52,953 nucleotides of DNA, filler included, from Basidiobolus ranarum (GCA_040143965.1; 3 parts of 3 records of this genome joined end to end with filler, not necessarily neighbours in it); one strand, 5' to 3'. Positions 8,651 through 48,235 are shown, numbered from the whole stretch's first letter. The notes: generated from the letters alone by a model not told the origin. Translations and numbers: made by a program.

Positions 8651-9406
8651 TTACAGGTATTTACGACGACGTTCCTCTCGCTTTCTACTTCTCTCCTCTT
8701 TTTCTTTTTGGGTCACTAACAACCTGTATATAACAAAGAATAGTTCCACCGCATCTTTGTACAATTTAAAAGTATCAGTGATGGGATCTACCTTTTCCCC
8801 CATGGATTGTTCTACTCTACGTATGATAAGGTGTGTATCATATAAAACGTAGAGACTGATGGAAACAACACCCAATAGAAGATGAAGGGTAGCAAACTTT
8901 TGAGTAAACATAGAAGCGAATGCAAAAATCAAACTACCAGCAGATAAAAAGCTGAGTAAAATGCTGAGTTGATAGAATTGTTGACGTCTACCAGTAGTAA
9001 AGAATCCAGCCACAGAGAAAGAACCAAAGACCACTAGAGCACTCCAAAAGGCGGTGTGAATAAGCTCTTCGTAATGGTTAAGTCCCTCCTCAATGAAAGG
9101 TCCAAGTATGAACCCATCGCTAAATGCGAACGCGAATAAACAGGCTAAACGTAATGTCTTCCGAGTGGTACTAAGGAATATCAAACCAAAGATAGAGGCT
9201 AAACCCGATAAACTTATGATACCTGAGAAACGGCTAAAAAAATCGACGTATAAATATCCCCAACAACCAAAGGCAGCACAGATCAATGTACTACCAAGTA
9301 GTAGGTAAACTTCTCTCAAGTGACGACGGACTGGCTCGGAAAGAACAGCGTTTTCGTTAGAAAACATATTGGCAAAACTTTGAGTTGCTTGTAATAAAAT
9401 ATCCAT
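8651..9406 (-). CDS. Bax inhibitor-1 (TMBIM6-like) family membrane protein
   Basis: VRRHLREVYLLL, G-x-ILGP, YVLYDTHLI motifs, 6-7 hydrophobic segments and a basic C-terminal tail. Intronless. Confidence 0.88.
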   Translation of the reverse strand: MDILLQATQSFANMFSNENAVLSEPVRRHLREVYLLLGSTLICAAFGCWGYLYVDFFSRFSGIISLSGLASIFGLIFLSTTRKTLRLACLFAFAFSDGFILGPFIEEGLNHYEELIHTAFWSALVVFGSFSVAGFFTTGRRQQFYQLSILLSFLSAGSLIFAFASMFTQKFATLHLLLGVVSISLYVLYDTHLIIRRVEQSMGEKVDPITDTFKLYKDAVELFFVIYRLLVTQKEKEERSRKREERRRKYL

Positions 9407-10263
9407 ATTGACGATGAATCAGTTATGGGAGAGCGAAATGGCGGTAACGACAGATATATAGAGATTTCGTTGTAGAAAACCCTAGAACGATGACTTGCGG
9501 CACTAAATGACTGCGGCGATTTTGGACCTAAAACCTGGATTGATCTGATTCGCAGAAATCGAATTAGAAAGTCTGACATCTCCATAAATTGAACATTACA
9601 AATTCCATAAATCAAACGTTCTCCATTCGAAGTAGATACAACATTTCCTATCCAGATTGATATCACAACTTCATGTTAAACGATATCGTATCAGGTATAT
9701 TTCCCGTAAATCCCTGAATCATCCACAGAGACAAGCATATAGCGATGCGCGCTCATCTGATTCGGATAGTAACATTTCCCTAGTTAGCATACAGTAATAA
9801 ACACTTGAAAATATCCACGACCACGCATGGCTATGGCTCTTAAAACTCTAATCCTGGCTCAGCTCGTATGTAGCTTCACTATTTGTCTACTTCTGTCCCA
9901 GAACTCACTCGTATTGGATTCCATTTAGACTTGCCCTGAAGCTATGTCACACTATTCCTAAGCCATGGAGTTTACTTAAAATATCAAACATCGCCCAAGT
10001 TGGTTACATTGATTCTCTAGCTCTGACTAGAGGTGGGTGTACAGGGAGCCGATTTCTTGCTGCTTTAAATAGGGCGACAAATGTGGACACATAATAAAAA
10101 GTACTCTAGTGCAAAAACAAGCATCTCCGAGTGGGGATTACATTGGAGCTATTGCAGAAAAGTAGCTCGGGTAATTTTCAAACTCAAAAATGCCACCTTT
10201 ATAAATGCTTTCCTACCGTGATTGGAAGAACAACAAATACCACCTTCTCTATCTCAGTAAATC

Positions 10264-17600: not shown

Positions 17601-17700
17601 NNNNNNNNNNNNNNNNNNNNNNNNNNNNNNNNNNNNNNNNNNNNTTAATTAATTAANNNNNNNNNNNNNNNNNNNNNNNNNNNNNNNNNNNNNNNNNNNN
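17601..17700. other. Artificial contig spacer (N44-TTAATTAATTAA-N44)
   Basis: Exactly 100 nt with a six-frame stop linker. Genes on both sides are truncated. Confidence 0.97.
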
Positions 17701-20129: not shown

Positions 20130-20551
20130 TACTAAAAGTATACTCGAAAGCTAAGAGAGTTTGTAAACACATTTACTCACTTTTAATCAAAATCACATCG
20201 ATTTCTGGGTATTAAATTATGCTGTTACACACGTACTTTGTATACTAAGTGTACTTCCGACGTTACATTATATTATTGGAGAGCCAAGTTAGGCTCATGT
20301 TTTCTCCAGTTGGTATACAGATGCGTATTATTTAAGGCTTTAACAAAGTCCCAGACATCCAAAATATCTGCGAAAAAATTGGTGCATTTAATCATACTCA
20401 ATACATAGGATAAACCAATTTCAATTGTAAACAAAGTACTGTAAACAAACTGTGAAAAAAGGTAACTTTTTGATATTTCTAACAAGGTTCCATCTATTTA
20501 TCCCTTTCACTTATTTGTTTGTTCTCGTGAAAAATACACCGGGGTTTAACT

Positions 20552-21460: not shown

Positions 21461-22265
21461 ATCGACAGTATGCATATCAAAGTAAAAGCAGAGATGCGCA
21501 CCCACACATACAAATATCGACTAGTGTTTCTTTTTTCCTGAGAACATCCCCAGAATGCGATCCATCCAATGATGTATATATATGTACATGTATCTAGTAA
21601 ATCGGACCTCAAATGGTAATTCCAACATTTTAGTAAACCTGAGCCAGTTAATGTAATGCCGCTGTCAGACTACTTCTCTTCGCTTAGTTTCAACATAACT
21701 GAATCTTGCATGCTAAGGGATATGCATACCCCGGTGGTTGATTGAACTCTGAGTTGAAACATGTTTATTGATTCAAGAAACAACAAAGATCTCCGAGAAT
21801 AAGGTAGCAACATGTAGATAGAATGAATGGGATTTAAGCAGGGAGAAGAAATAGAAGACACATAAAATGATTCAAGAAATATACGGTGATTAAATGATTA
21901 AGGTAGATTTAGTACGGGAAGCTCTGCTATAATGAAATGTTGGGAGCAGATGATAGGTGTTGAGAAAATTACAAAGCATTACCGTTCCATGATAAATACA
22001 CCTAATAGGAGGTCAGTTACTGCAAATGATTATTGGTTGGAAATAAGCCTACCGAGAATAATATCCTTGTAGCGATGAAAAATGGAGTAGCGACTTTCAT
22101 GAAAACAATGTGCAGTGGAGATCACTTTTGAAGGAGAGATTCACTTGTAAACAGAGTATGTTTCCACCTGGGAATCTGTTACTAGGCACCTCACACTTCA
22201 GTAGCAATTCTGGACTGATTGTGGATATGATGTCGATGACTCCACAATTGTCACTTAGGATCTAC

Positions 22266-24976
22266 TCAGGTAGGGATTTGCACAAGCTCATCATCTTGAG
22301 CAAGGGCTTGGAACCAATAAATTAAATACTCGAGGGGACGAGTGCGAGGCTGCTGTTCTTGCTGAGTAGATGAGGGCTCAGGGTACCAAGTCATGGCAGT
22401 GCCGTTAGTGTTGCTTAGTTGATCAGCTTTATGCTCAATCATAGGTTGCTGTAAAAACATTGTAGTCAAAATGCCTAGAATGTATACAACCAGAGTATAT
22501 AGTATCACTGTTACAGTGCCAGTTCCACGCGTTCTAGTTGCCAATGTGGTGCTATGCATGCCTGAGCTTACAACATCGCTTGAAGCTTTTGAGGAGGAAG
22601 CAAGAGGAGCTTCGTGACGACGACGCACTACATTTTGTCGAGGTGCGGAAATTCTCTGGAGAACTCCAGTAGAGTCACCATATGGTTGTTCACAATTGTC
22701 AGAGTGTGCAAGTAACTCCTGTATAAGAGTTTCTTGTGCTTTGAAATTACTAATCAACTTGCGGTATTCCATCTCCAAGTTCTGATGAAATTCATCGCTT
22801 GGCTCCTCAGTATCAGTTTGGGTCTCCAGTTCAACTTGGTGGTCGCACTGAACTCCAGCTTCTTGAGTGGCGCAGATTTGGGCATTGTTTCGCAGACGAT
22901 CTATCTCTTCATGGAGCGACTGTCTTTCGAGAGCAATAGCCTTCTTTGCTTCTTGAAGCTGGTATACAGCATGTTCCCATTTTCTAGAGGCGTCTTCAGC
23001 CTCCGTCTTGAGATGAGTATTTTGATCTTCTAGATACGCTATATAGCCACTATCCTCTTCATGGGATTCTAAGACGGGTAGAATCTGGTCCTCGTCAGGT
23101 AAGAATATTCCACTTGATTGGTCTTCAAGTAATGATGATAGTTCGAAATGTAGATTTTTTTCACTTTCCACATTAGAAACATCTTCAAGGTCTTTCAAGG
23201 TAACACCTGCGGGTTTGTTAACCCCTTTAATGGCATCGTCCAAATCATGACGCAAGCGGTCAACTACATCCCTGAGGTGTTGATTTTCTTCTTTCAGCTC
23301 GTCAACTTCTTGCTCCAGGGTTTGGGCAAACGCAACTTCTTGCTCCAATCTCGAAACATGCGATTCAAACGCTGAACGCTCCTGCTGATATTTCTTTTGC
23401 TCTATTGCGTAGTTGTCAAGATCCATCTCGGATTTAAGAAGTTCATCCTCTCTCATTCTCAATTGAAGTTGAAGCTTCTCTGTTTCTTCCCTTTTCTCAT
23501 CGTATTGTCGACGCAAGTCGCTATATAGATTCTTATGATGAGAGAGAACTCTAGATATTGATACGATCTCTGACTCCAACTACAATTCAGATCAAAATTT
23601 GATTAGTTAACACTGCGCCAACACTTAAGAAAGATGCATTAATGCTTTACCATTGATATTTGTTGCAGATGGGCCTTCTCATTACTCTTATACTCTTGGA
23701 TTTCACGTTTCTTACTGGTCAATTCCAACTTCATTTCATCGACTCGAGTCTGAAGTTCTGAAATACGCTCCTCGTGTTGTCGTACAGAAAGAGTGAGATT
23801 TTTTTCGGTTTGACGAAGTCTCTTGTTCAACTCCAAAGAAATTCGACTCAAATGACCGATTTGAGATACGGCATCCTTGGACTAAATAAACCATGTTTAA
23901 TTATGGATAATGAGTATATTAACAAAATAAAATCTGAGTACGTACATCGAGGTCAAAATCTTCACCTCCAAATCCCTCAAAGCTTTTCTCTCCTCCTAGA
24001 AAACTATCGTCAAAAACATCATCATCACGGGATTCAATGAAGCTACGACTATTTCTCAAAGATTTGGCGGAATACCCGGGAGAAGTCTAGCGATAAAGGC
24101 ATTAGCAATGGCACTATTGTATTTACATTAATGTTCACAAATACCTTGTAGTATAATAGTTTACCAGAGTCTTGCTCGAGGAAAGGTTCAGGTGAGTAAG
24201 ACTTATCATCTTCTAGATCACTGAGAGTTGGAACGGCAGCATATGCATCCCGTTTTTTGTCTACTTCTATAAGAGAGAGGTGAAATAAGTCACCTAGCAT
24301 CCATCGATGGGTACATCCCGATAAAAGTAGAGAAAATACTTACCAGCTGCAACCTTGCGAGTTGAAAGTGTACGAGTGACTGGAGTTGTCCTTTGTCTTG
24401 AGGCAAGAGGAGAAAGTGGGTGAGTAAAACCCAAAGTGGAATGAGGTCTTGGTGTGGTAGGGGGACGACTATTTCTGACTGGGGTTCTGGGACTTGTAGT
24501 GGTAGTATTAGAAGGAGGTGGTGCAGAAAGTTGGGAAATAAGTCGATAAAGGTCTTGTGGGGAAAGTTCCAATTCAGAGTTTTTGAGGCAAAACTTTTGT
24601 AAGAGTTTTTTTGGTTCAGAGTCTAAAAGCTCTACTCCTTGCTCACGTTCGAAGAAATCCAATATGGGAAATAAATCCTGCGCCACAATTGAACCGCGAT
24701 TTTCTCGGTCAAACTTGGTAAAGATAACTTCCAAATTGGAGTGGAGGGTCGAAAGTGGGCTAATAGGTTCGACCTAGTTAAATTTCAGATGTAGGAAAAG
24801 ACAAAAGTTTTGGAGAGTAAGTTTAGTTGTTGAATAGTTTTACGTTATAAAAAGTAAAAAGGAAAGTATATAAAACTCTGAGAGAGAATGGTAATAGCCA
24901 GAAATACGTAAAGGCAATGGATTGTTACCTTCTTTTTGAGTCCCGCACCATTGTTTTGGGACCGAATAGTTGACAT
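22266..24976 (-). CDS. EF-hand + long coiled-coil + C-terminal TM protein ending QIPT (KASH5/Kms1-like outer nuclear membrane protein); ~6 exons
   Basis: ATG 24976 and intron 24774-24928. EF-hand-like FTKFDRENRGSI, heptad-rich exons 23639-23851 and 22266-23579, TM VTVILYTLVVYILGILTTMFL, then a ~60-aa tail ending IPT. Confidence 0.75.
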
Positions 24977-26379
24977 TGTTATTATGTTCGTTGAGCTATA
25001 CAAGGTGATATATGAGAGGAAAAGCTACAGTTAGGGAGTGGAAATGTAAGGGGAAATTCGCCGAAGTGAACAAAATAGTTGCTATAAGCCACTTACAAAA
25101 TAGTAAAGGTTTAGGAAAAGGATGGGAAGAGTTACAGACAAGATGAGATGAGATGAGAAGGGAGAAAAAAATAGCAAGTTAATACAATGATCATTTAATG
25201 TATCCTTCTCTTGATCTTCGTTAATGAAATGAATGCATCTTATTTAATTAAGAGTGGAATCCAACGATAATAAGGGTTTCCAATTCAGTCAGTCTTTAAA
25301 TAGCAAGCCTACCAACCAGACCGTGGTTTCGCAAAATCTAAAATGCCATTGCGTAGGTAGCAAAACTGGCTTTGGGTTCATTCTCTATTAGATCCTATCT
25401 CTACTAGTTAAAGATAGATCCAAGCTCCACAATGTTGATATTATGTTTAATCTTTAAATTGGATGCATTCTAAGGGCTCTTCGCAGTTTGTCGTTGGGTT
25501 GTAATGGAATGGTTTGATGAAATATGGTGCACCTCTGATGCAATGTCGAGTTTGGTTCAAATGGAAATTCCGGTTACGAATGCAAATTACTCTCCCGTAC
25601 ATTGATTGACGAATTATCGGTTTAGAAATATTTGTTATGTCAGATTTACCCTCCAAGCTAGCTTCCCCTCTAGACAGGTAACTTCCCCACCGAACAGGTT
25701 TCGCACTTGTATGTTTGTGGTGTTTCGATATGGCAAAAGATATGGCAAATTGTATTCATAGTAATACAGGCCTCCCCAAAATTCCTTGTTTCGCCCAATG
25801 ATCTAGTGAGAGGGCTAGGTGCACTGTGTTGTAAAGTAAATCGCAACAAGTCATCCACGTGTATTGTTATTAATGGAGGGCTGAGCTTAGAGGTTACTGA
25901 AGCAAGTTGCTTGTCACAGTCGAGTTCACCAGAAATGTTGTGTCTAAACAATCACTTACGCTTCATTCTAGATTTTATTTAGCACTAGTCTTACTTGATT
26001 AATCTAGGTGATTTTTTTCTAACGAGACGGTTAATTTATCTGATTTTCATCGTGCATTTACTCAACCGATTATTCAGTTAATCTTCCTTTCACTCGTTTG
26101 TATTCGCTGTCAATTGGGACTATTAATATCCGCCACCTTATTTGCATATCAAGACAGTTTTGAAAGATAATAGAGTGCTGTTAAAATTATATAACTTCAT
26201 GCCAAAATACTCTTTGACGTCTCTATAGATTATTCCAATTTCTGCCCTACTTTACGATAAATTTTCGCCGAACTCATTACTGCATTTCGTAGGTCGATAA
26301 ATACACCATCTTCCTTGTATCTCGACTATTTTAAACATAGGTCAAGCTACACACTTCAACAGAAATAGGCTCCATAGCC

Positions 26380-29300
26380 ATGTTTACACTTCCCACGCCT
26401 TGCGAGAGTACCCCATTTTGGGAGGATATAGCCAGCAATCAGTACTTTGTTGTTCAACGCGCTCTAGGTTCAAATAATTTTTTATTAAAAAACGTCCTGG
26501 GAACTATTCAAAACGTGTAAGTCTACTGATTATTATTAGATTGTATCGAAAAATATTTCCAAGGAAGGCAGCTCTTACATATTTTCCTAAAATCATTCCG
26601 AACCCGTTTCCTTGTCCATACGATTAACTTTACTTTTCTATTTATTCCAATATACAGTCTGGATACAAAACAAGCACCTTTCCGGATTCTGTTTCGGCCA
26701 AACAAAAATGGAGAAGGAATGCATCTTATTGCCGAGTCGAATACTCGTGAAGGAATTGAAAAGCCTTGGAAATGGCTTGAAGGTAGGTAAACATTAGTAT
26801 ATTTCATAAACCGTCAAACATGTAACTAACCTCATCGCTAATACCCCATAGATCACCTCGTAAAAGAACTAAAAGCGTTAGACGATCCCTTTGAAAGAGA
26901 AACTTTCGTGTTAACGAAGGTCAACTCTTTGGTATCAAGCTTAGATGCTGGGGACGATTCAGCCAATGATGAAAAGCTGAGAGCTGCTACAAGGGCTTTT
27001 AGACAGACATTTAATATGCCTACTAGTGAAAGAGTGGTGAACTTCTATTCCTGTGGATACAATCGTAACTTCATGATGAATCAAGGGTGGATGTATATAA
27101 GTGAACATTATTTATGTTTCTACTCATTCATCCTTGGCATCGAAGCCAAGATTCAAATTCCACTAAGAGATATTGAAAGCTTACACAAGGAAACTTCAAA
27201 ACGGGGACTATTGTCCGATTCGATCAAAGTGATTACCAGAGACAAGAAAGAGGTAAAGAGAGCAGTGCATCCAATTGATATGTAATACATTGAGAATCAG
27301 GGTCTAAAGACAATCATATTTCTACAGTATTTTTTCTCTAATTTGTTTCGACGCGACGAGGTATGTTAAGTCAATACGAATATTGCGGTATCTCATTCTC
27401 AAGAGTAATCCACTGATTGAATTGCTTTGTAGACCTATGATCTTTTGGTCCAACTAACAAATCTGTCGATGCAAAAGCTGTTACAAAATTCAGCCATGGA
27501 CTTTGCACCAGGTCTATCGTTAGATGCCCATGCTGCCGCTGAGTCTTTGTATGATTCTTCAGATATTACTCAAGGAACCAATTCTTCAGTACGAAAATTA
27601 CAGGCTCAATTTCAAAAAACCTCCTTGAAAGAGGATCTTAAGCAGCAAAAACTTAACGACACATTCCAAACTACATTTCGTCTTCCGTCAACGGAGCACC
27701 TAAATGTTGAAGCAGACGCTATCCTTTCCGTACCTAATCGCGAAGAAAAATACCTTGGAAAGCTTAGCATATCCGAAACGTTCATTACGTTTGTATCTAC
27801 GGATGGAAAACTGTGTTCAACTGCGATTCCTTTGTTTGTAATTCGTAGAGTAGAGAGAATCAATCCCAAGTCAAATCTGTGTATCTTGGCCATCACAACC
27901 TGGCATCAAATGAGAGTTGTATTTCAGATTCAAGGATCGCGCAAGATTGGTGAGAGCTATTGCCTAGCGCTCAAAAACAATCTCAAGGATCAAATTAAAG
28001 CAATGAAAGCCCTCAAGCCGTTCTTACAAACATGTGTCTCAGAGAGCCTGTTAAAAGATAAAGAAAACCTCAAATTTGGTGGACTTGGATTGAAATTCGG
28101 ATATCCGGGTGATGCGAAGAAATCCAAAGAGAAAGGAAAAAATAAGTACTGGCTAAGCTATCTCAAAGAAAACGGTCGTAATCTGACTCTCCTGAAATTC
28201 CCTGATTTTTCTCGTCTAGTGAAAATCGGTCTTCCTAATAGTCTTCGCGGGGAAATCTGGGAAATATGTAGTGGTTCAATCTATTTGAGAAGCATGAATC
28301 CTGACCTCTATCAAAAAATCAACGATGAGAATGCTGGGAAAGTATCGTTGTCTACGGAGGAGATCGAGAAAGATTTGAATCGCTCTTTACCAGAGTATCC
28401 TGCCTACCAAACAGCGGAAGGAATCGACACTTTGCGAAGAGTGCTCACGGCTTATTCCTGGAAAGATCCGGCTCTTGGTTATTGTCAAGCTATGAATATA
28501 GTGGCATCTGCGATTCTCATTTACATGACCGAAGAGCAAGCATTTTGGACTTTGAGTGTACTGTGTGACCGATTTCTTCCTGGGTATTATAGCACATCTA
28601 TGTACGGAGCTCTCCTTGATCAATCCATTTTCGAACACTTGGTAGAACAATGTATGCCCATTCTTCATGAACATTTGAAAAAAACCGATATCCAATTATC
28701 AGTTGCCTGCTTGCCCTGGTTCTTGAGCCTGTTTATCAATACCATGCCTATATCTTTTGCCTTCCGTGTACTAGATTGTTTCTTTATGGAAGGGCCTCAT
28801 GTACTATTCCAGGTTGGCCTTGCCATCATCAAGATTAACGGAGATGAGTTGATGGAAGCGAGTGACGATGGAGCGTTTATTCATACACTAAAGCGCTACT
28901 TCACCAAGTTGGATGATCCTCTCTATCCAAATAGCAAAAACCCACGTGCGAAGCTGTTAACTAAATTCCATGAACTTATGTTGGTTGCGTTTAAGGAGTT
29001 TGCGCATGTGAACACCGATTGTATCACCGAGCTGCGTAAATCTCATCAATTTCGAATTGTTCACAACATTGAGAGTTTTACCAAACGAACGCACATCCGT
29101 AACCTCTTTCATGTATCACGATTCAACAAGGAAGAACTGTCGGTTCTCTACGACAAATTCCACGATGTCCAATTCTATAGCAACAAAAAACAAAGTGAAA
29201 CGCCCGATGTCAAAATGGATTTTTGGAATTTTCAGAAATTTTTAGGCTCCATCGCTCCTTGGGCTGTTATGGAAACTAGTACCGAATCGCAGCGTCTACT

Positions 29301-30144
29301 TAAAGGACACGGATCCTTGATGGTTCAAAAGAAAACCGTTGGTAGTTCGTTTATAGAAAAACTCTTTAAGCACTTCGATAAAGCTCGATGTGGCAGCTTG
29401 TCACTTCAAGATATTGTCATTGGGCTGCAAGACATAATGTTTGGTGATTTGATGTCGCAGATTCAACTTTTCTTTCATCTCCACGATAGCAATGACGATG
29501 GACTTTTGACAAAGGAGGATATTTTACAAATGTCTGAGAGCTTTCTATTTCTGTTCCGGAATGAAAAAGATGACCGATATCTTCGAGCCGTTTCCAATCT
29601 CCTTCAAAACTCAACGCATTATTCCGAATCCCCAACGTATAGTCCACAATTTGTGGAGAGTGTAGATGGAAATGGCGATATCTTTACCAAGCCCAGCTCG
29701 CCAGATGCCCCTGAGGAACTTGAGAAAGATGCCATCATAGTATCGCTGCCTACGTTTCGCATGATAATCCTAGCTGACGAAACATTGGAACAATTCTTTG
29801 ATTATAAATTCGCAGCATCATTCCAACTTACAACGAATTCTAGCGCTGACAGACAAAAAGGCCTTGGTCGTGAGATCTTTGAATCATTACTTAACGAAGG
29901 CTCTAAACTTGCTGATCGTGTATCCCAATTCCCCAAAAGAAAGTTTCCTTCTAAGAAGATATCCACTAATATGGATACACCCTTGAGTGAAGGTAACCTA
30001 ATCGATATCTCAATTCCATCTTTGACGCATAAGGACTCTCACGACGAAGAAAATGACGATGACGACGATCTAATGGCAGTGGATCATATGCTCAGACATC
30101 TGGATGAACCACACAAAGAGGAGTCAATTGACAATTTTGAATAA
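26380..30144 (+). CDS. GYP2: Rab GTPase-activating protein with GRAM, TBC and EF-hand domains (Gyp2/Mdr1, TBC1D8/9-like)
   Basis: GRAM (NFYSCGY...QGWMYISEHYLCFYS), TBC catalytic fingers (IEKDLNRSLP; GYCQAMN) and EF-hand (LHDSNDDGLLTKED). N-terminal exons start at ATG 26380. Confidence 0.92.
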
Positions 30145-30652
30145 ACTGGTAAAGACGACATTCCGAAGCAGCTGCTCAACTCATACTCTTCCACTGTCCG
30201 TACATATCCTGATCGATAAACATCACAAGGAAGAACATTAACCTTATTTGATATACAAGCTCTATTTTTTCACCTTCAAGATCACAAAACCCATTAGATC
30301 TGCTTGAATAGTTAATAAATTCCGAATGTTTATATTGTAAATGGTGTTTTATCTTTCGTTACGAAACAACATATCATTCGGGCTATGACAAACCATGGAC
30401 ATGGCTTACTTTGTATATTTAGACAGTGGTTTTTATTTTATTGACCTTGAACAAATCATCTTGAGTAACCTTCAAAATCATACTATATTTACGTTTATTA
30501 GGTACCTATTGACCAAGTTTTAAGCTACCCCGTATTACAATTGTGCAGTGTAAGTGTTTGTACATATGTATATTATGCTCAAGATAACACAAAGAATTTC
30601 CGTACTCATAGGGCCTACGAAGTACCGCTACCCTTGCTTTTTGAATGTTTTC

Positions 30653-31856
30653 TCATTCAACACTTTCTTGCTCCTCTGGTTCTGTCTCATGCAATTCCGA
30701 GTTGGGGAGATCAGAGACTTCTTCAGCTCGTTGTATCTTCCGTGCTTCTTCCTCTTCCTCCTCCCTCTCTATTGTACGAGCTCTTTTACGTGCTGCCAAT
30801 CTAGCCAAAGCACGCTCACGGTTCTCCCGAATACGACGGAGTTGATCCGCCTCGATATCACCATTTGACCCGGTGAATTGCAATCCATCCTCCATATCTG
30901 CAACTGGGCTTTGAGTCTCTTCATCCGATTGAATAACCATTGGAGCGTCAACCTCTTCGTGGTCACCGAAATTCCAATCGGTTATTGTATCAGGTCTTGA
31001 ATATGTCAAAGTTAAGTATGATATTCGTAAGATTCAAGACTTGTATGATATTAAAAAAACCCACCGATTGTTATCAATCTGAATTTGCACGCCTAAAAGT
31101 TACCATGCATCAGTAAATACCTCTCAACACAATGAAAGTGACAATTTTGAAAGTATACCAGAAGCTATACCACGATTTTCACGTTCAGCTTTAATTAATT
31201 CCTCACGAAAAACCTGAGTTTGGAATAGGAGGAATTTCATCAGTGACGGAAAAGGACCATATAGAAAATACCTTTAAATACCTTCAGTCTCCTCTCTGAA
31301 CATAATTTTTCAATCTTTTTAATCGCATCAGGGAAGCGCATTTTAGGGAATAATTGATGACACCATAATTGATAAAAGTCCAGAAGATGTCGAAGGTCCT
31401 CAAACTATTTATAAATTTCCATTAAAGTGGTTAGGTCACCACTAGGTAAAGAGGAAGTATAGTGAAGAAGAGTATACCTCTTGCCCTTTACCCTTGAACT
31501 TTAGTTTTGGTCCCTTTTCTTTTATATACATCAAACCATTGGGTTGAAGCAAACTGTAGAAGAAAGTTTAGAATACAAGACGAACTAGTCAAAGTTCAAC
31601 TCACTTTTTTCTTGGCCATCTCAACAGGTATATTCTAATTACCTTACCGATTTGCATCTAATTTAGGTTGTGGTTCTCTTTTCTGCCGAGTTTTCACTTT
31701 ATCCAAGTTTTCGTTAGATAGTGAAGTAGCACCAAGGAGGTCATTGTCGCTATGGTCATCAAAAGAAGCTCTGCTGTTCACGTGTTCAGAGCCCTCTCTG
31801 AAAGATTCCAAGGGGATTTTTTTATGGTTCTCAGCATCTAATTCATATTCAAACAT
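30653..31856 (-). CDS. CSM3: Replication fork protection component Csm3/Swi3/TIPIN; ~6 exons
   Basis: Hand-spliced: KREPQPKLDANR|LLQPNGL...KLKFKGKGQE|FEDLRHLLDFYQLWCHQLFPKMRFPDAIKKIEKL (Swi3 domain). C-terminal RIRENRERALARLAARK. Confidence 0.9.
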
Positions 31857-32138
31857 GTTTCTCTATACTTATACTTTCAAGTTAGGTTTTAGAAGTTAAG
31901 GTATATTTTATATATACATCAGTGTACGAAGTCAACTAGGCATTGTTTATTTATTTTCCAAATTCAAACTTTGTGATTGGTGCACTGGAGTTAACTTGAT
32001 TTTAATGAAGAATCGGAAAACTATAGTAAAGTTGGAAAAATAATCCCGAATTAATTAACAATCTTTCATTTTATTCGATCATTTCCTTCAAACTAAATAT
32101 GGTTTTTGAACATCTCGAGCTTACTTTGAACATAAACT

Positions 32139-32556
32139 ACGCGTGGAGGCTCAAGCTTCAGGAAATGCATCTCCAACCAAGCGAATCAGTAACTATAGAT
32201 TGGTAAAGAGGATGTATACCAAGGAAACAGCGCCATTGAACACGCGTTCAATAAGCGATCTGATTCTTTGTCGTATAATAAAATAGAGTTGCTTGGTTAG
32301 TGAATGAACTTCAACAAAACCAACACAAAGTCAATTAAGCAAACTTATCCAACGATCATTCGATAGATGTTCCCCATATAGAGAGACAAGCAACAGGCAA
32401 GCATGGATAGGTAGCTAAGAGGCTAAAAATAGCACTGTTGGCCTGGATTCACACCAGATACATACGGTAAATGGAGTATCAACGCCGTTTAAAGAATATT
32501 CCATGATCGATCAGCCAACCATAGGTTTGTTACCATTTTCTGACTCCTAGACGCGT
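32139..32556. promoter_or_regulatory. Three ACGCGT (MCB-like) boxes in the CSM3 upstream/divergent promoter region
   Basis: Exact ACGCGT at 32139, 32242 and 32551, 280-700 nt upstream of the CSM3 ATG. Confidence 0.5.
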
Positions 32557-32789
32557 TATACTTGGTGTGATTGGCCACGTCAAGAAGAAAATCTATCTTG
32601 GGACAGCTTTTCTTAGTCCAGCTAATAATAAATAGATTTCATTTACTTTAACATTCCTTTTTGCATTTCGTGGTCCAATTTTTTATTCCTTTGTTCGTAG
32701 CATAATCGTCCTTTTTTTCTTCGGAAATACTTTGGATATTCGCCCACTGTCACGGCATTTATCACATATTGCTTCGACTACCTGCTCCG

Positions 32790-34140
32790 ATGAGACTTGA
32801 TTTTTTGAAATATTTCATGTTTTTACTGAGATTCGCAATACTTCTTGGCATAACCACCTACGTTAAGGCCGATTCTTCCAACTCGAACGTTCCTAGCGAC
32901 AGTAATATTCCTATGCTAACTAATTAATTAAGCTGCTTCGAATTAACCACCACATTTACAGTCCAGGATATTAACAGTGAATGCGGTCCAGATATTTATT
33001 GCTTGCCTAAAGCAGGGGATTTGTGGGTTCCTCAAGAAAATGGTTTTCTTCAATGGAACAAAAACTATCCCACATTTTTAAACACAGGTTCGGTCAATAT
33101 AGGCCTATACAACACCTTATCTGGTAATCCAGTGCAATTGTGGAATCACTATAGAAATGAAGGCATTCTTGTCATCAATAATTTCACGACCGATTGGTTT
33201 CTGGATCTAAACAATGTTTCTCCATATGAGAATATCACTCAAGAGTTTTACTTTGACATTACTGCCATATACGATACGAATGCACCTTATAAACCTGGGC
33301 CTACTTTTTTTATTGAACGTATGTTTATTTAAGTTGAGTATATTGTTGACTATGAATACGTATTAATGGTCATACGATTCGTATTTAAGGACCAATGCTC
33401 TTACCCACTCCCATCCTACCTGCTACTCCAATGCACAATAAGACGTCTACAACATCTACGAGTACCAAACCAACGAGTACCAGCCCCAGCCCCAGTTCCT
33501 CCAGCTTTTCCTATGGCCCTACTAATCCTAGTGTACAAACACAGGGCACCTCTGGTCTCTCAGCTGGGGCTATTGGGGGGATTGCTGTTGGCAGTGTATT
33601 GCTGGTTACCATAGTAGCTTGATATCCTTTTTACTTTATCTGTCAAATCTACTCTGGATTCACTTAATTTGATCATTATATCCTTAACTTTCACCTACTT
33701 TGTTTTATATACTTCGCCGTAGACGAAGAAATCAACTAGCTAAACCCGGGCTAGGAACCAATAGTGATCACAACTCCAGTCACGTTATTGTCAATGCTGT
33801 AAGTGATAATAACTCAGATAATGACGTAGATGGTCAGTTACAGATGGCAGAGGCATCTAGTCCCGTCAAACGAAACTCACTGCGACTTACAGTAAAGGGA
33901 GCCCAAGAGCTTGCCCATGCTTATCGAAAAATGCTCACCAACCAGGATGCCATCGAAGACAGTCAGCCATCTAGTCAACAACGGAATTTATACAGTGACG
34001 AATTGCTTCGTCGAGAACTAGCAGCAGAAGGACATGGTGTTAAGAATGTTTCCACCTCACCAGCTATCGTTGTTGTAGGTGAAGATCAAAATAGTCTATG
34101 TAGTATGACTGCCGATACCACGGATTCCAGTGAATTATGA
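32790..34140 (+). CDS. Type I single-pass membrane protein (~380 aa): signal peptide, lumenal domain, S/T/P stalk, TM, cytosolic tail; 4 exons, one AT-AC intron
   Basis: Exons 32790-32901, 32962-33318, 33390-33621 and 33699-34140 sum to 1143 nt in one frame. TM GAIGGIAVGSVLLVTIVAC|LFYIL is followed by RRRRR. Confidence 0.85.
33622..33698 (+). other. U12-type (minor spliceosome) AT-AC intron, 77 nt
   Basis: 5' site ATATCCTTT, branch site TCCTTAAC at 33681-33688, 3' end TAC at 33696-33698. Removal eliminates the TGA at 33620-33622 and restores the frame within the TM helix. Confidence 0.9.
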
Positions 34141-34442
34141 TGAATTCCCCACCCGTTCGCCATCCGTTAATATATACCCTTGATTTGCATCATTTAATTC
34201 CCATTCATGTCTCATTTTAATTCATTCTCGTCGTTAATAGATTATGTTGCCTTCAAATGTATGATAAATCCTTTTTGTCTCCTTCTCATCTTATTAATGT
34301 TTTCCTGTTCTTCCACTGTTCTTCCACTGTTCTTTTCATATGTTTAGAGTTTAGAGTCTATTATCCAGTATGTAGTATGCAGTGTTCGATGTATTCTCAT
34401 TTTGGGGTAAAGTATAGATATATATATACAATTTAGAATATT

Positions 34443-34501
34443 CCAACTGATTTCAACCAACTGAGTTTCAACCAACTGAATTTCAACCAACTGAGTTTCA
34501 A
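34443..34501. repeat. Minisatellite, 4 x ~15 bp CCAACTGAnTTTCAA
   Basis: Direct tandem copies at 34443, 34457, 34472 and 34487. Partial further matches at ~34561 and inverted at ~34628. Confidence 0.85.
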
Positions 34502-35020
34502 CTGTGATGAAAACAATCGACATCCAGTGCTATTTTTTTTATTAATCTTTGTTATAATAACAACTGAGTATTGGTATCAAATCAACCAACCATCTATCTG
34601 ATATATGTATGATTGGATGATTGATCTGGTTGAAATTTCACTCCCAGTCAATCCCATATTTACGCTATTTGAATATCAGAAAACTGCTGTGGCTAATTTA
34701 ATTAAGAATATTGGAAAATCCATGTAATCTCTCATTTTGAAGCTATACCATATAAACAATGTCTTTACAACATATATGCAATTACTCCCAAAAATCCCAA
34801 TGCTGAGTTAGTGAATAAATAGCTAATATTTATACTAGTTTTGTAAGCCAATATACACTTGCCAATTTTCCCCTAAAAGGTCAGCAACTTCATAAATATC
34901 AAGTTCTTCAGAATATAGCCCAAGTGTTTCCACTCAGTTTCCTCTCTGTTGAAAGTGACATAGCTTAAGCATCAATATAGTTATATAGCTAGCTCTCTAA
35001 ATTTCACTCAAATCTGACCA

Positions 35021-35290
35021 GGAATATTATTACAAACTTGGAAGTTTCCCAGATATATACTTCTCTCAAGTTGGTCTAAAAGACATAGAAATTTGCATTG
35101 ATATTCCTGGGATCTTCTTAAAGATATTGTTGAAATTAGCATTGCCTAAACACCTATATAGTCATATATAACTTAGTAATTAGTTATCTTATAACTCACT
35201 AAGATATTATCAATTATTCTCAATTGGAATTTACTTAGAATATTTTTACCAACTTAGAAGTTCTCAGATATATAGATTTTTCAAACTTGT
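35021..35290. repeat. Degenerate dispersed repeat (two related segments) running into the contig end; related copy at 49419-49525
   Basis: 35226-35290 aligns by eye with 49419-49484 (GAATATTTTT...AACTT-GAAGTTCTCAGAT...TTTTTCAAACTTGT). 35021-35116 is a more diverged third copy. Confidence 0.65.
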
Positions 35291-35390
35291 NNNNNNNNNN
35301 NNNNNNNNNNNNNNNNNNNNNNNNNNNNNNNNNNTTAATTAATTAANNNNNNNNNNNNNNNNNNNNNNNNNNNNNNNNNNNNNNNNNNNN
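35291..35390. other. Artificial contig spacer (N44-TTAATTAATTAA-N44)
   Basis: Identical 100-nt linker to the one at 17601-17700. Confidence 0.97.
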
Positions 35391-36341
35391 GTTACATTTG
35401 AACGAATTCAATTCAAAACTGCCACTGCCAATAACGGGAAAAGACGGGCTGCTCAACAATACTATTTGCTTGTTATCGAACTTATTGCCGAATGTGACAA
35501 TGGTGAACAATACCAAGTAGCAACAACGCATTCTGCACCACTAGTTGTGCGTGGCCGCAGCCCTGGCCATTACGCCGACAACAACGAACGTTTTGGTGGT
35601 CTTAATCCGAATGGATCCTCCGATGAAAGATACTATCCCCATCATCGATTATCATCTGATATGGGCTCACCATACTCCGCCTTCCCTCCATACCCCCCAT
35701 ACACTGGTCACCCCTCGGCCCAAATGATGATGACACCGCCGACGCCAAATACCGGAAATACATTCCAGAACCCCTCACCTTACATGATGCACAGTCTGCC
35801 AGACAGTGGTAACGCAACACCCGAGATTTTTTCCAATGGGATAGGGTCCGGGCTAAATTCTAGTATTCCATCCCCCATAGTCAATGAATCAGGACCTCCA
35901 AGTCACCAACCCCAAGGAAAACCTTTACCCAGGATGAATCAGCTACCGATTGGTCTAAATATACACAATGTTCATCCCGAAGGAGATGAAAATTGGTCAC
36001 GTCCACGCATTGACTCGTATAATTCTGGAAATCCCTATGGTACTGAAGAGAGTCCAGGTTATCAGCAACACCACACTATGTCGAATTCAGGGTTTAATAG
36101 CTATGATCAAGGAAACATGAAGACTTCGGTTGATTCCATGACTTCCGACAGATTTGGCACTCAGGAAGGAATGAATTATCCACAGACCATGAGCAATTCC
36201 TATCATTCTCAAGATTACTCTAATCAGATGTACTGGCCAAGTCAGCACTCAAGTGGGTATCCACAGGATTCCAGCCGCCCTCTTCCACCCCAGCACTCCC
36301 AAACTCACCCGTATACCTACTCCTCACATGAGAACAAGTAA
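35391..36341 (+). CDS. NDT80/PhoG-family transcription factor (5' truncated): end of the DNA-binding domain plus a low-complexity P/S/N/Q tail
   Basis: Frame is open from the contig start: VTFERIQFKTATANNGKRRAAQQYY...SAPLVVRGRSPGHY. Confidence 0.92.
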   Translation, partial: VTFERIQFKTATANNGKRRAAQQYYLLVIELIAECDNGEQYQVATTHSAPLVVRGRSPGHYADNNERFGGLNPNGSSDERYYPHHRLSSDMGSPYSAFPPYPPYTGHPSAQMMMTPPTPNTGNTFQNPSPYMMHSLPDSGNATPEIFSNGIGSGLNSSIPSPIVNESGPPSHQPQGKPLPRMNQLPIGLNIHNVHPEGDENWSRPRIDSYNSGNPYGTEESPGYQQHHTMSNSGFNSYDQGNMKTSVDSMTSDRFGTQEGMNYPQTMSNSYHSQDYSNQMYWPSQHSSGYPQDSSRPLPPQHSQTHPYTYSSHENK

Positions 36342-41625: not shown

Positions 41626-43963
41626 GATAAAGTCAAACAACCGGGTTCCAAAGAGTGGAGAGAGAGAGAAAGATAATAAGTAACAATTCGTTAACGAAGG
41701 GAAAGTTGATATGAATATAGCGTTCTCAATCGACGATGCGCACAATGTGGCTTACAGAGCGAAGTGAGCCGGGGTGTTATCCAATGTCCAGGGTTGTAAG
41801 AGCTGAATTGAAATTCATGGTCAAATATATTCCGGATCAAGAATAATCAACATTACTTCTAACAAGTTATCGTTCGATGGAAATGGATATTTTATGAACT
41901 TGGATTGCATAATAACCTCGAGCATTCGAGATTCTCTCTAGCTCCGATTGTGATCAAAACCCTTTGTCAATCCGCCTGAGGCGATCAGATAAGGTTTCTT
42001 CCAAAATCTCGAATCCTGCAACACAACCTAGGTTTCTCAAGAGTGAAACTAGACCAATTACCAGGGGAGACATCAAATCTCGCGACAACCGTGGCCCAAA
42101 CTCAAATACCTCAGATTCAAAGAAATCGAGAACTACGAGGCCAATCAAAGAGCTCATAAACTATACCAGGGCATGAAGGAGTTCAATGGGATCTTATATT
42201 TGTCGAATCAGCGCCGGCCACAGGGTTAGCTTCCTCTGCAAGTGGCACTCTAAATATAGGCCTAGTTACTCAGTTTCCTTAGAGGATCTCAATTCGTTTC
42301 AGCAAGTTTAATGACCCGAGTATCAAAGCAAATGGACACTCTCGTCTACTGCAGTTTCGTTACACCGCGATTAGCTCAGCTTTGATTTTGTACCTACTTC
42401 GCACTACATGGTACCTCCCAACTTTATGCTTGCAAGACATGAAAGTTAGTTACTAGAAACCCCAATGGGACCATTCATTTTGTCCAATGGAAATTCAGTT
42501 TGGTGAGTGTCATACTCTTGTAATTAACGCATGTGTCTAACCCTAAACCCTAATCACGACAAATTCCATTGTTAACGCAGGGCTGATATTCTAGTTAAAT
42601 CACCATAGTTGCTTGCAACGAATGAGACCTGATTGAAGGTCGTGTCTATATTAAGTCTACTTATCCTACGAACTCAAAAGGAGTATTTGCCAAATTGGCT
42701 GGCGAATATACCATATTCAGTACATATAATCTGGTTTATAAAGTTGGTTAATTTGAAATTTAAGCAGAAATTTGAGTTACAATATGGCAGTTCTTAGATC
42801 ATATCTAGAACTAGATACACGCTAGATGTTTTCGCTACTAGCCGATGTGTACGTTCGTTTATAGATGTTGATACCGTTAACAAAGAGCGAGCAAAAGTAA
42901 ACATACGTCCGAAAGGGTGGTTATCTTCTCATTTCAAGTCGCCTAGAATATTGAAATTCTGGACTTGAGAGCATCGACCGTTTTCTTTGTTCTTATTTAT
43001 TCTCGAACCCGCGTTGTTTAGAGTTCATCTTAACGCTGTCTACGCTCTCAAGTTCTGATTGGTGACCCGGAGGGCTCCATATGAACGGAGGGCAGCAAAG
43101 TTTATTTTGCCAGGAATCTCGTTAGGAATCGCCTAAACGAGGAATAACCAATGTTGGTGATGATAAGAGAAGTTAAATTACCCAGGATTTCCAAGTATGT
43201 AGTTCATGTGACGAGCATTTGGCACAATTAGATCTATGTTGAAGCTTCATCAGCCTCAGAGAGTGAATCACATATGTATTGAGTAATCATGTAATGGCAT
43301 CCAAGTGTCTGGTCCTAAAACCGCCCCTTTTGTGGTATATAAGGGATCTATATACTGATTGAGGTGACTTGCTAGACGTAAACTTGAAACAACCAGTGCT
43401 TGCCTCAAAGCTTCGAGATGGATCTCGCTATTTTCGACGAACAAAAGCCCATAGATTGCGGATACGGATGACAATCTATATCTCGATCTTATATGGGTTT
43501 CGGGCTATTTTGGGTGCATTTCAACTGACTAAGTATTCGTTATTCATAAAGCTCATGCCACCAGTTAGAGCCCGACCTTCATGGCGCTTTGAGTACATAG
43601 TGTCCAATCTCAAAAGTGGAATAAATACAAGTATGGGAATTCTCGTCAATCTGGCTTTAATATTGCAAGCTCGGAGAGAATTTCACTCTTTTGGATTCAA
43701 ATATAGTTACTAATTCTTGTCCGAAAGCCAATCAAGGACAACCATAAATGTTGTTTTTTCCACTTTCCAGTTCTTCCAACTTCGCCGCAGCCTTCCACTC
43801 TCTTTGATTAGAAATAATAATAACGAAGATTTTTCGTCATCACAACAATTTCTCATTTAAATGCTCTTTCTCTCATAACTATAAATACAAATTATCGCTT
43901 TCTCTAGATTACTATTCTCTAAAAGTGTCTTCTTTTGTGCTCTATTAAAGAAATACTTCAGTC

Positions 43964-46317
43964 ATGGTTATGTATGTCAAGAAACGCGACGGAAGGCAAG
44001 AGCGTGTTGCTTTTGATAAAATCACAGCTCGAGTTAATAAACTATGTTATGGACTTGACACAAACTACGTTGATTCTGCTGCTGTTGCTCAAAGAGTCAT
44101 ATCCGGTGTATATGAGGGTGTCACCACTCAAGAGTTGGACAACCTAGCCGCCGAAACCGCTGCTTATATGACCACAAAGCACCCTGACTATGCCATATTA
44201 GCGGCACGTATTGCCGTATCAAACCTTCATAAGGAGACAAAAAAGCAATTCTCTTCAGTCATTAGTGACTTGTATCACTACGTAAATCCTAAAACCGAGA
44301 AACCCTCCCCTAAAATCGCCAAAGAAACCTATGAGATCGTTATGAAGAATGCGGAACGTCTCGACTCCGCTATCATTTATGATAGAGACTTCAATTATAA
44401 TTATTTTGGGTTTAAAACACTCGAGCGGTCTTATTTACTTAAATTAGATAGTCAAGTTGCTGAGAGACCTCAGCACTTGGTTATGAGAGTCTCCGTGGGG
44501 ATTCATGGCGAAGATATTGATGCTGCAATCGAGACATACAATTACATGTCAGAAAAATACTTTACCCACGCATCTCCAACTTTGTTTAATGCGGGAACAC
44601 CCATTCCACAACTTAGCAGTTGTTTTTTGGTCTCTATGAGAGAAGACTCAATCGAAGGGATTTACGATACTTTGAAAACTTGTGCATTGATCTCAAAATC
44701 AGCTGGTGGAATTGGTCTGAATGTACATACAATCCGAGCCTCCGGATCGTACATTGCTGGCACCAATGGAACCTCAAATGGGTTGATACCGATGTTACGA
44801 GTGTTCAATAATACTGCCAGGTACGTAGATCAAGGCGGTAATAAGCGACCAGGGGCATTTGCTATCTACTTAGAGCCATGGCATTTTGATATATTCGACT
44901 TTTTGGATTTGCGTAAGAATACTGGTAAAGAAGAGTCACGAGCCCGTGATTTATTTTACGCGTTATGGATCTCTGATGTATTTATGAAGAGAGTAGAACG
45001 TGATGAGGACTGGAGTTTATTTTGCCCCGCAGAGGCCCCCGGCTTGGAGGAATGCTGGGGAGATGAATTCGAAGCGCTATACACATCATATGAACGCAAG
45101 GGACTTGCTCGAAAGACCATCAAAGCACAGAAGTTGTGGTATGCCATCCTAGACGCACAAATTGAAACTGGAAATCCATTTATGCTCTATAAGGATGCTT
45201 GTAATCGTAAGTCCAATCAGCAAAACCTAGGCACCATAAAATCTAGTAATCTTTGCTGCGAAATTGTCGAGTACTCGAGTCCAGATGAAGTTGCTGTATG
45301 CAATCTTGGTAGTTTGGCACTCCCACGTATGTTAGCTCAAAAGAAGTCTTTAACTTTGAAGAATTACACAAGGTCACTAAGATCCTCACCAAGAATCTCA
45401 ACAAAGTAATCGATGTCAATTACTATCCGATTGAAGAAGCACGTCGTTCTAATATGCGCCATCGTCCAGTTGGTTTGGGAGTACAAGGTCTTGCTGATGC
45501 ATTTATCAAGATGCGCATGCCATTTGAATCCGCCGCGGCGATAGACTTGAACAAGAAAATCTTCGAGACCATCTATCATGCGGCGCTAGAGTCATCTTGT
45601 GAGATTGCCGAGCGTGATGGTCCTTATTCTACATACGAAGGTTCACCAGTTTCCAAGGGAATTCTACAGTATGATATGTGGGGTGTTGAGCCAAGTGACT
45701 TGTGGAATTGGGAAGAGCTGAAGGAGAAGATTGCTCGTCACGGTATACGCAATTCATTATTGGTCGCTCCAATGCCCACTGCTTCTACTTCCCAAATTCT
45801 TGGTTTTAATGAATGCTTCGAGCCTTATACCTCCAACATTTATACTCGTAGAGTTTTGGCTGGGGAATTTCAAATCGTCAATCCATGGCTACTAAAAGAT
45901 TTGGTTGACTTGGGATTATGGAATGACAGTTTGAAGAACCGAATTATCTCCGATAGTGGATCAATTCAGAGTATACCATCGATCCCTAAAGAGCTTAAAG
46001 AATTGTATAAAACTGTTTGGGAAATCAAACAGAAAGTGATTGTCGATATGGCCGCCGATAGAGGAGCATTCATTGATCAATCGCAATCACTTAACATCTT
46101 TATTGCCGAGCCTTCTTACTCCAAACTCACATCAATGCACTTTTATGGATGGAAGAAAGGATTAAAAACGGGCATGTATTATTTAAGAACTAGACCAGCC
46201 GTAGACGCTATCAAGTTTACGGTAGATCAACTTTCCCTTAAAAAAGAAGCAAGTGAAGAAGCCAAATTACAGTGCTCAATTGATAACAAGGACGATTGTA
46301 CGATGTGTAGCGGTTAG
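43964..46317 (+). CDS. RNR1: Ribonucleotide reductase class Ia large subunit, interrupted by an apparent 1-nt deletion at ~45322-45325
   Basis: ATP cone (KRDGRQE...FDKI), [34 protein letters not shown] and C-terminal CTMCSG. ORFs 43964-45409 and 45454-46317 join via a -1 shift at LP|TYV. Confidence 0.93.
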
Positions 46318-46427: not shown

Positions 46428-47660
46428 TCACATTTCCTCAAGAATGGTGATGCCAACCATCAGACCAACACCTACAAACATGGCGACGATTTGCCAAAAT
46501 GCATCCGATAATTTCTCACGTAAAGTGCCTTGCTCCGAATCTTCAAGAAGTTCGGGGATAACTCCGACGGTGGCAATATAGATGAATCCGCCTGCAGTAG
46601 CTGGAATGATCATTTCACTGGCAGTAATAATGGAATCTCCTTTGCTACTACCTAGAACTCCATTTAAGATGGGTATCAAGTCTGGGTTTCTTGTAGCCTC
46701 CTCGATAGCCACCCCGACAACAGTTCCCAAGAAAGCGCCAATAGCAGTAATAAATTGAGCACCCAAAGCACGACTCCTGCTGAAACCAGATTGAATCAAA
46801 ATAGCATAATCTCCAACTTCATGAGGAATTTCGTGGAAAAATACTGCAGCGAATGTTGAGATACCAATCGCGGGAGAGGTATAGAAAGATGCAGCAATAG
46901 CTAATCCATCTGTGAAGTTATGGGTCATATCTGCGATTAAGTTAAGATAAGCAGATAAATTGACACTTCGTGTGGCGATTTGTTGATCTTTTTTATCTTC
47001 CGATTCATCCGTTTTCTTTCGCTGACGTAGCTGAGTATCAGTCTCGACAACTGCAGTACTTTTACCTTCACTTTCACCATGATGACTATGTGAGTGAGAG
47101 TGTCCTCCACCGCTTGCAAGTCTCATGAATTTGTCCATCAAAAAGAAAAACAAAAAGCCCCCGAAAATTCCCAAACCTACGTACACGTTGCGCCATTTCA
47201 TACTTTCTTCGCTAAGTGAGTCTCCGTGCTCACCCAAGAAAGCTTGAGGTAGGAGGTGCAAGAATACATCTCCCAACAAACCACCTACCGCAAAGCTTAC
47301 CAAAATATTTAAGCTACTTGGACGAATGTTGGGTGGCACAAAAAACAAAATAAAGTTAGGGAATAAGGAGATGTATGCAGTAGCCAGGAAAGAGGAGATC
47401 ATGGGACTCTCGGAAAATAAGAAACTAAAAGTTGATTTTCCTTCGGTCTTGCCACCAGTGCATTCGCCTGATTGACCGTTCCATCCAAAAGCACTGAAGG
47501 AGCATTCTTTGCCATCCAATGTCTCTTCTTGAAGCGGATTTCCGCCAGACTTTTCAGTCTTGATTCTGTGTCCAGCACATAATAGAGTACCAAAGACAAC
47601 TATCAAAATTAGAAGTTTCCAATATCCCTGTTTATTTCCCAAAGAACCGATTGACGGCAT
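46428..47660 (-). CDS. YKE4: ZIP-family zinc transporter, LIV-1 subfamily (Yke4/ZIP7-like)
   Basis: SFAVGGLLGDVFLHLLP, HSHSHSHH loop, HNFTDGLAI and FFHEIPHEVGDYAILI motifs. Confidence 0.92.
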   Translation of the reverse strand: MPSIGSLGNKQGYWKLLILIVVFGTLLCAGHRIKTEKSGGNPLQEETLDGKECSFSAFGWNGQSGECTGGKTEGKSTFSFLFSESPMISSFLATAYISLFPNFILFFVPPNIRPSSLNILVSFAVGGLLGDVFLHLLPQAFLGEHGDSLSEESMKWRNVYVGLGIFGGFLFFFLMDKFMRLASGGGHSHSHSHHGESEGKSTAVVETDTQLRQRKKTDESEDKKDQQIATRSVNLSAYLNLIADMTHNFTDGLAIAASFYTSPAIGISTFAAVFFHEIPHEVGDYAILIQSGFSRSRALGAQFITAIGAFLGTVVGVAIEEATRNPDLIPILNGVLGSSKGDSIITASEMIIPATAGGFIYIATVGVIPELLEDSEQGTLREKLSDAFWQIVAMFVGVGLMVGITILEEM

Positions 47661-48235
47661 GTTTCCAGTTGGTATTATTAAAGTAAGGAAAGGAATGAAT
47701 GATTGTAGTAATAGCTTCGAGCAAATATAAATCTAGCCCAAACGATCCAGGAAACACAACCAACCTGATTGGCTAAATTAGCGTTTAATCTGAGCTTCCA
47801 TTGATTGCCAGCTGACAGGGAGATATTCAAAACATAACCTGATGCGTTTTCAAGGGATCAAGGGTTGAGAACATCGGAATTTCACCAATCCATCCATTTA
47901 GCTTCTCAGTAGATATACCCATCGCGTCAGCGATCTATGAGAGGTGGAATTAGAGTCACTCAAGTTTAGTTTTGACCAGCTTGTAGGACGATGGAATTCC
48001 GCTGTGAAATTATTAGTGGGCACTATAATGCAAATCCCCATCTGAACAATTCAAGAGCATATATTGATTGCATTTGATCCCAAAATTTGGTACATCTGAG
48101 GGACTGAGAGATTACTAAAAGTAGTAGACTTGGTGGTAAAATGGCATACTCAGGATAGACTTAATATGATTCAACAAAAGGATGTTGGACTCTTGAGCTA
48201 GTCCTCCTCCTTTCCAATCGTAGCCTTTTTTTGTC

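Follow-up and report, generated by a model that had tools for sequence, protein, structure and literature searches.

An AT-AC intron, very probably U12-dependent, in the transmembrane segment of a Basidiobolus ranarum membrane-protein gene, and its apparent footprints in paralogues

At one locus of the early-diverging fungus Basidiobolus ranarum, the coding sequence of a membrane protein is broken in the middle of its transmembrane (TM) helix. The upstream open frame (33389-33622) reads ...GAIGGIAVGSVLLVTIVA (...VTIVA) and then runs into TGA at 33620-33622. A second frame further downstream, 33688-34140, gives ...LFYILRRRRRNQ... (LFYILRRRRR), which looks like the continuation of the same helix. 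The locus therefore raises the question of whether the two frames belong to one protein and, if so, what kind of intron separates them. Judging from the motifs, the reading frames and the homologues, positions 33622-33698 are very probably a genuine U12-dependent AT-AC intron in K7432_006643, a gene for a 380-aa type-I membrane glycoprotein.

The gene and its AT-AC intron

All positions refer to the window, that is, the whole 52,953-nt stretch of DNA that was analysed. Two blocks in it, at 17601-17700 and 35291-35390, have the form N44-TTAATTAATTAA-N44 and are linkers with stops in all six frames, so the window was made by placing three assembly pieces one after another. The AT-AC gene is on the middle one, 17701-35290 (17,590 nt). 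The other genes of the window were recognised by Pfam on long open frames:

8651..9418, minus strand, Bax-inhibitor-1 family protein
27433..30144, plus strand, RabGAP-TBC protein with EF-hands
35343..36341, plus strand, NDT80/PhoG-like DNA-binding protein
43949..46317, plus strand, ribonucleotide reductase large subunit, in two overlapping frames
46428..47732, minus strand, ZIP zinc transporter

Genes across a linker, for example the NDT80-like frame, need not neighbour the AT-AC gene. The two overlapping frames of the ribonucleotide reductase imply at least one intron near 45300-45400. The AT-AC gene itself is made up of four exons and, in addition to the AT-AC intron, two ordinary introns:

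32790..32901, plus strand, exon 1, with the start codon and a signal-peptide-like N-terminus, ending in phase 1
32902..32961, plus strand, intron 1, ordinary GT-AG, 60 nt, GTAATA...ACAG
32962..33318, plus strand, exon 2, extracellular domain with CGPDIYCLP and WN..YPTF motifs
33319..33389, plus strand, intron 2, ordinary GT-AG, 71 nt, GTATGT...TAAG
33390..33621, plus strand, exon 3, encoding the Ser/Thr/Pro-rich stalk followed by the initial 17 TM-helix residues, ending with TG of codon 234
33699..34140, plus strand, exon 4, beginning with the third base of Cys234 and encoding the remainder of the TM helix (LFYIL), the RRRRR stop-transfer and the conserved cytosolic tail, up to the stop

Joining 32790-32901, 32962-33318, 33390-33621 and 33699-34140 gives a coding sequence of 1143 nt, corresponding to 380 codons and a stop. 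In a Kyte-Doolittle scan of the product, the most hydrophobic 19-mer was found at residues 221-239, across the AT-AC junction. Shortly 3' of the stop codon there are two tandem arrays, CTGTTCTTCCA x2.7 at 34305-34334 and CCAACTGAGTTTCAA x4.1 at 34443-34502, which are probably in the 3' UTR or flank.

The elements of the AT-AC intron are as follows:

33622..33698, plus strand, intron read as U12-type AT-AC, 77 nt, phase 2, on the basis of its motifs, the combined pattern, excision and alignment
33622..33630, plus strand, 5' splice site ATATCCTTT, its A being the first intron base
33681..33688, plus strand, branch-site motif TCCTTAAC, an exact match 10 nt before the terminal AC
33697..33698, plus strand, 3' terminal AC, the last two intron bases

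The 5' splice site consensus of U12-type AT-AC introns is ATATCCTT, which is present here from the first intron base onwards; the 5' splice site matches ATATCCTTT in 9/9 positions. A further 51 nt separate the 5' ATATCCTT from the branch TCCTTAAC. For the branch site of minor introns, the available text of El Marabti et al. 2021 (PMC8199999) gives UCCUUAAC, places it 10-20 nt (optimally 11-13 nt) from the 3' splice site and describes the polypyrimidine tract as absent from these introns. The exact TCCTTAAC at 33681-33688 agrees with this motif. Counted from the last intron base (33698), its two A residues lie at distances of 12 nt (33686) and 11 nt (33687), within the optimal range. By the established U12 pathway, U11 would be expected to pair with ATATCCTTT and U12 with TCCTTAAC.

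After excision the junction reads GCT TG|T TTG, the intron splitting the Cys codon 234. The A of the in-frame TGA is intron base 1, so that an intron left in the transcript leads to an immediate stop. Retention is thus predicted to give, through TG+A, a tail-less product ending after 17 hydrophobic residues. The initial annotation had claimed a canonical U12 AT-AC intron in the TM segment of a single-pass membrane-protein gene from an early-diverging fungus, and this core reading holds. Its coordinates, motifs, intron length, TG|T junction and 380-aa product were all confirmed in the sequence, as were the GT-AG type of the other two introns and the position of the retention stop, which falls within the TM helix and uses the first A of the intron.

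A second ATATCCTT within the intron overlaps the branch motif, forming ATATCCTTAAC at 33678-33688 on the plus strand, and this 11-mer has one further copy in the window, at 3643-3653 on the minus strand. No branch motif that could serve the inner ATATCCTT was found downstream of it, and the overlap is probably a coincidence resulting from the CCTT core that is common to both consensus motifs.

Chance matches and competing junctions

By itself, neither of the two 8-mers is unusual, and neither is rarer than expected by chance in a window with 39% G+C. RTATCCTT has 11 matches in the window against 5.26 +/- 2.44 expected, with 2 out of 100 shuffles reaching 11, and TCCTTAAC has 3 against 2.16 +/- 1.57 expected, with 36 out of 100 shuffles reaching 3. 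The combined pattern ATATCCTT-N30-60-TCCTTAAC-N6-14-AC was found once in the window, at 33622-33698, and in none of the 100 shuffles. This single match is placed exactly at the break of the two open frames, and its excision restores a conserved helix. The other 10 RTATCCTT sites of the window were checked as well, and each lacks an open upstream frame, a branch motif at a workable distance, or both.

Other ways of joining the two frames were enumerated with donors at 33480-33622 and acceptors at 33640-33799, for junctions of the GT-AG, GC-AG, AT-AC, AT-AG and GT-AC types that join the frames without a stop. There are 96 stop-free pairs joining both frames. All of the 8 GT-AG and 16 GC-AG pairs among them use acceptors at or beyond 33722 and lose the second half of the helix together with at least three of the five arginines; none of these 24 keeps the TM helix. 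Their donors (GTTCCT, GTGTAC, GTCTCT, GTGTAT and GC...) are unlike the likely U2 donors of the window, GTAAGT, GTACGT and GTATGT, a comparison set which consists of a rough heuristic intron list and the gene's own two GT-AG introns.

Terminal dinucleotides alone are said not to decide the type of spliceosome, so the AT-AC intron could in principle be excised by the major (U2-type) spliceosome instead of the minor one. For this intron such a route is extremely unlikely, as ATATCCTTT is matched in full and the exact TCCTTAAC is located 10-12 nt from the 3' end, the two being the recognition elements of U11 and U12, whereas the U2-type introns of the window begin with the three donor hexamers given above. 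In addition, the available text of the surveys cited below reports hundreds of minor introns from the genus, as well as the minor snRNAs. Removal of 33622-33698 by the minor spliceosome is therefore the preferred reading.

The protein family and its deposited models

In 380/380 residues the spliced model is the same as P0001, deposited at NCBI as the hypothetical protein K7432_006643 of Basidiobolus ranarum, which means that the public annotation already uses the 33621^33699 junction. The '99%' identity to P0001 in the search and alignment output is due to the first TTG, which the tool read as Met. In UniRef, P0001 carries the automatic name 'Mid2 domain-containing protein'. By searching with the exon-4 translation, 9 longer proteins were found, all from B. 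ranarum or B. meristosporus, with P0001 as the best.

In alignments of 9 and 20 members, the exon translations flank exactly one column (Cys) and the TM segment is ungapped, except for the paralogue anomalies described below. Excision thus restores the reading frame and matches the homologues without a gap; the nearest relatives read ...TIIAC|LVYF.RRRRR at the junction. The strongest conservation in the family is found 3' of the intron, where SLRLTVK.AQ.LA..YR and YSDELLRRELAAEG.GV are nearly invariant in 9/9 relatives, indicating that exon 4 is under selection as part of the K7432_006643 protein.

In a word-based search, 27 of the 8000 candidates that were scored reached E <= 0.001. Twelve of them, all from Basidiobolus, matched at E <= 5.4e-62, and the other 15 at E >= 2.6e-11, covering at most 30% of the query. 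This had suggested a family confined to Basidiobolus, a suggestion that was overturned by an exhaustive profile search. This search gave 17 matches with E <= 1e-30, 174 with E <= 1e-10 and 12,978 with E <= 0.001, the majority in the last set covering the stalk and TM helix only. Among the 20 profile matches that were looked up are 10 from B. ranarum, 1 from B. meristosporus and 3 from other named fungi. Relatives of the full-length type that carry the tail motif come from Neoconidiobolus thromboides (P0035), Calcarisporiella thermophila (P0047) and Ambispora leptoticha (P0044). These sequences show a fungal family older than Basidiobolus, with members seen in fungi only.

No significant Pfam family was found for the K7432_006643 protein. 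PF14610 (Psg1/Ykl077w) had no match in P0001 at E <= 0.1 and its gathering score was not reached; the paralogue P0004 scored 32.0 bits (cut-off 30.1), P0005 25.8 and P0007 18.6. The K7432_006643 protein is at best a distant relative of Psg1. It has in common with Psg1/Ykl077w and the 'Mid2 domain' proteins a signal peptide, a small Cys-containing ectodomain, a Ser/Thr stalk and a single TM helix, whose basic stop-transfer is followed by a cytosolic tail, whereas the conserved tail motifs of its own family are outside the Pfam model for Psg1.

Several other family members have models that change at the position of the intron. K7432_013540 (P0029, 211 aa) ends ...VGSVLLVTAVA and then stops, at the same alignment column as the window junction. 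For K7432_009463, two isoforms have been deposited, which are identical through ...VLAAAGI; the long isoform (P0170, 346 aa) goes on ALVVYRRRNMK..., and the short one (P0033, 237 aa) reads YLFI and then stops. K7432_009049 (P0059, 220 aa) ends ...GALVAGI-YPFVSIL-stop at the junction column. In B. meristosporus, K493DRAFT_334152 (P0011) contains a charged in-frame insertion of 16-17 residues starting YPL, which its B. ranarum orthologue P0028 does not have. If the insertion is removed, by an AT-AC or a GT-AG reading, P0011 is one residue shorter or longer than P0028 (alignment columns 306-323), which can be explained by either a slightly shifted junction in P0028 or a one-codon indel in the clade. 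The TM helix is absent altogether from K493DRAFT_343781 (P0012). The closest B. meristosporus relatives, P0002 and P0003, have the same junction residues as K7432_006643, ...IAC|L....

Among the 171 proteins scanned, truncated ends were found only in P0029, P0033 and P0059, plus the unrelated 1005-aa P0101, and YP[LF] was seen behind a hydrophobic stretch in P0011 and P0059 alone. Eleven B. ranarum family loci extend to the junction column. For 3 of them the deposited model stops there or at most 7 codons on, and read-through leads to a stop within 0-7 codons in 4 of the 5 loci examined.

TAT CCT TTx encodes Y-P-F/L. An Ile, Gly or stop before YPF/L fits AT|A, GG|A or TG|A, respectively, and by the genetic code these paralogue ends are what would be expected from read-through of a phase-2 intron beginning ATATCCTT. 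On the same reasoning, the Ile that is retained in both K7432_009463 isoforms would exclude G as the first intron base. As far as can be told from protein models, the position and type of the intron are conserved, four other loci showing either a stop, a split between isoforms or read-through into YP[FL]. Footprints at the same column in four other Basidiobolus loci point to an intron that is common to old paralogues: what appears to be the same phase-2 intron is at the same codon in several of them, in B. ranarum as well as B. meristosporus. The intron would then be older than the duplication of these genes, and it probably predates the divergence of paralogues that are now ~25-50% identical.

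The same models could also be taken at face value. The short product would then be the normal one, with the gene ending at TGA 33620-33622, the downstream frame being a remnant or a separate unit and the truncated paralogue models being true, and the three of 11 B. ranarum loci with models that stop at or just after the column would agree with this. It is nevertheless very unlikely, as the downstream frame lacks its own start codon in phase with a signal sequence, completes the TM helix and the RRRRR stop-transfer, and contains SLRLTVK.AQ and YSDELLRRELAAEG.GV, the most conserved blocks of the family. Furthermore, the full-length deposited K7432_006643 is identical to the spliced product, and K7432_009463 also has a full-length deposited isoform.

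The recurrence of the footprints bears on another possibility, namely that an assembly error or a pseudogene has produced a 77-nt insertion or frameshift which merely resembles an intron. The assembly is indeed fragmented, the gene being on a piece of 17,590 nt, but random damage would not yield exact U12 motifs with the right spacing, could not be excised exactly to restore a conserved helix and would hardly be seen again at this column in four further loci from two species. Such an artefact is scarcely credible, and a U12-dependent intron common to the old paralogues is the explanation that we prefer.

The initial annotation also expected standard gene predictors to mis-annotate this gene. 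For K7432_006643 this was not the case, since its deposited protein uses the AT-AC junction, but for the paralogues the expectation was apparently right, as their models are truncated or carry an insertion. Mis-modelling, or real retention, at this intron thus seems to be common in deposited annotations. Models that are cut short or carry an insertion at the intron mean that annotation of Basidiobolus needs gene calling that is aware of AT-AC introns.

Two further pairs of family models are incomplete. P0036 and P0038 (K7432_008223 and K7432_008222) have adjacent locus tags on one contig of 14,019 nt and resemble the two halves, N- and C-terminal, of a single family member that was split, the TM region being absent between the halves. 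P0030 and P0010 (K7432_014000 and K7432_014051) are N- and C-terminal fragments on separate contigs of 5,854 and 5,778 nt. These split models are further signs that the family is hard to model in a fragmented assembly. When metagenome contigs were scanned with a 4-row alignment of the family, 272 pattern matches were obtained, of which 0 were confirmed as relatives.

Minor splicing in Basidiobolus and in other lineages

In the available text of Larue & Roy 2023 (PMC10639083), 249 minor introns (0.554%) are given for B. meristosporus, which is the highest density reported for a fungus. The criterion of presence in that survey calls for a minimum of two minor snRNAs; convincing minor introns are described there as not found in Ascomycota or Basidiomycota, old genes as favoured by minor introns, and minor-intron retention as measured in Rhizophagus. 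The corresponding number in the available text of Olthof et al. 2024 (PMC11347168) is 237 minor introns in B. meristosporus. Genes for U11, U12 and U6atac snRNAs are described there from zoopagomycote species, B. meristosporus included, and U4atac in B. meristosporus as a putative divergent match only. These introns are from the same genus and belong to the same class as 33622-33698, and the orthologous B. meristosporus intron may already be in the published per-intron lists.

A mention of B. ranarum was not found in the available text of either survey. It is this literature on its congener that supports a putative working minor spliceosome in B. ranarum. The Rfam scan of the 52,953-nt window gave 0 matches at gathering thresholds, a result which says nothing on the rest of the genome. 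In the literature on Basidiobolus U12 introns no treatment of this membrane-protein family was found; there was also no paper found on the B. ranarum annotation pipeline, and one preprint mentions the B. ranarum genome in NCBI.

As for the origin of the intron, its being common to deep Basidiobolus paralogues means that it is not a recent gain in K7432_006643. An introner-like origin was considered and rejected, as there is no other copy of the intron in the 53-kb window, where the best other match is 13 nt. A tandem-duplication origin, for which the two ATATCCTT copies in the intron were judged by eye, was also rejected because the flanks do not match.

The initial annotation went on to suggest a splicing-controlled truncation switch and a gain of the intron in the fungal lineage. 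The switch is speculation, and what speaks for the two ideas are hints from the paralogues, one of which (K7432_009463) has a deposited short isoform of exactly the retention type. Retention of a slowly spliced intron could be a conserved device that sets the ratio of full-length to tail-less protein across the family. A wider proposal, which combines a family-wide retention switch set by the activity of the minor spliceosome with a Basidiobolus minor-intron count that is partly due to fungal-lineage gain and family expansion, is in our view rather unlikely. If it were true, part of the record minor-intron count of Basidiobolus would come from gain and gene-family expansion, not from ancient inheritance.

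As Basidiobolus is already known from publications as the most minor-intron-rich fungus, the intron is a correct but fairly ordinary find and will not surprise a specialist. It adds one well-defined example to the known picture of active minor splicing and many U12 introns in this genus. What is modestly new is an intron that appears to hold one fixed TM codon throughout an expanded family of fungal membrane proteins, together with one deposited short isoform of the retention type and several deposited paralogue models which break exactly at the intron. A fungus-only family with the intron in old paralogues could be a convenient test case for dating minor-intron gain versus inheritance, and the same family would be convenient for measuring minor-intron retention in a fungus.

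U12-type AT-AC introns have reportedly been described in animals and plants. The Basidiobolus intron is like them in its 5' ATATCCTT, its UCCUUAAC branch site, the short distance from branch to 3' end and its AT-AC ends. It is different from vertebrate minor introns, which are typically much longer than its 77 nt, and from the U12 introns of animals and plants in having as host a fungus-only membrane-protein family and not an old 'information-processing' gene, a class which, according to the available text of Larue & Roy (PMC10639083), has more than its share of minor introns. The same text cites an expansion of minor introns in Physarum polycephalum, another lineage beyond animals and plants that has many minor introns and that raises the question of gain. 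In contrast to that case, the Basidiobolus intron gives no sign of gain, and its sharing among paralogues is explained by gene duplication.
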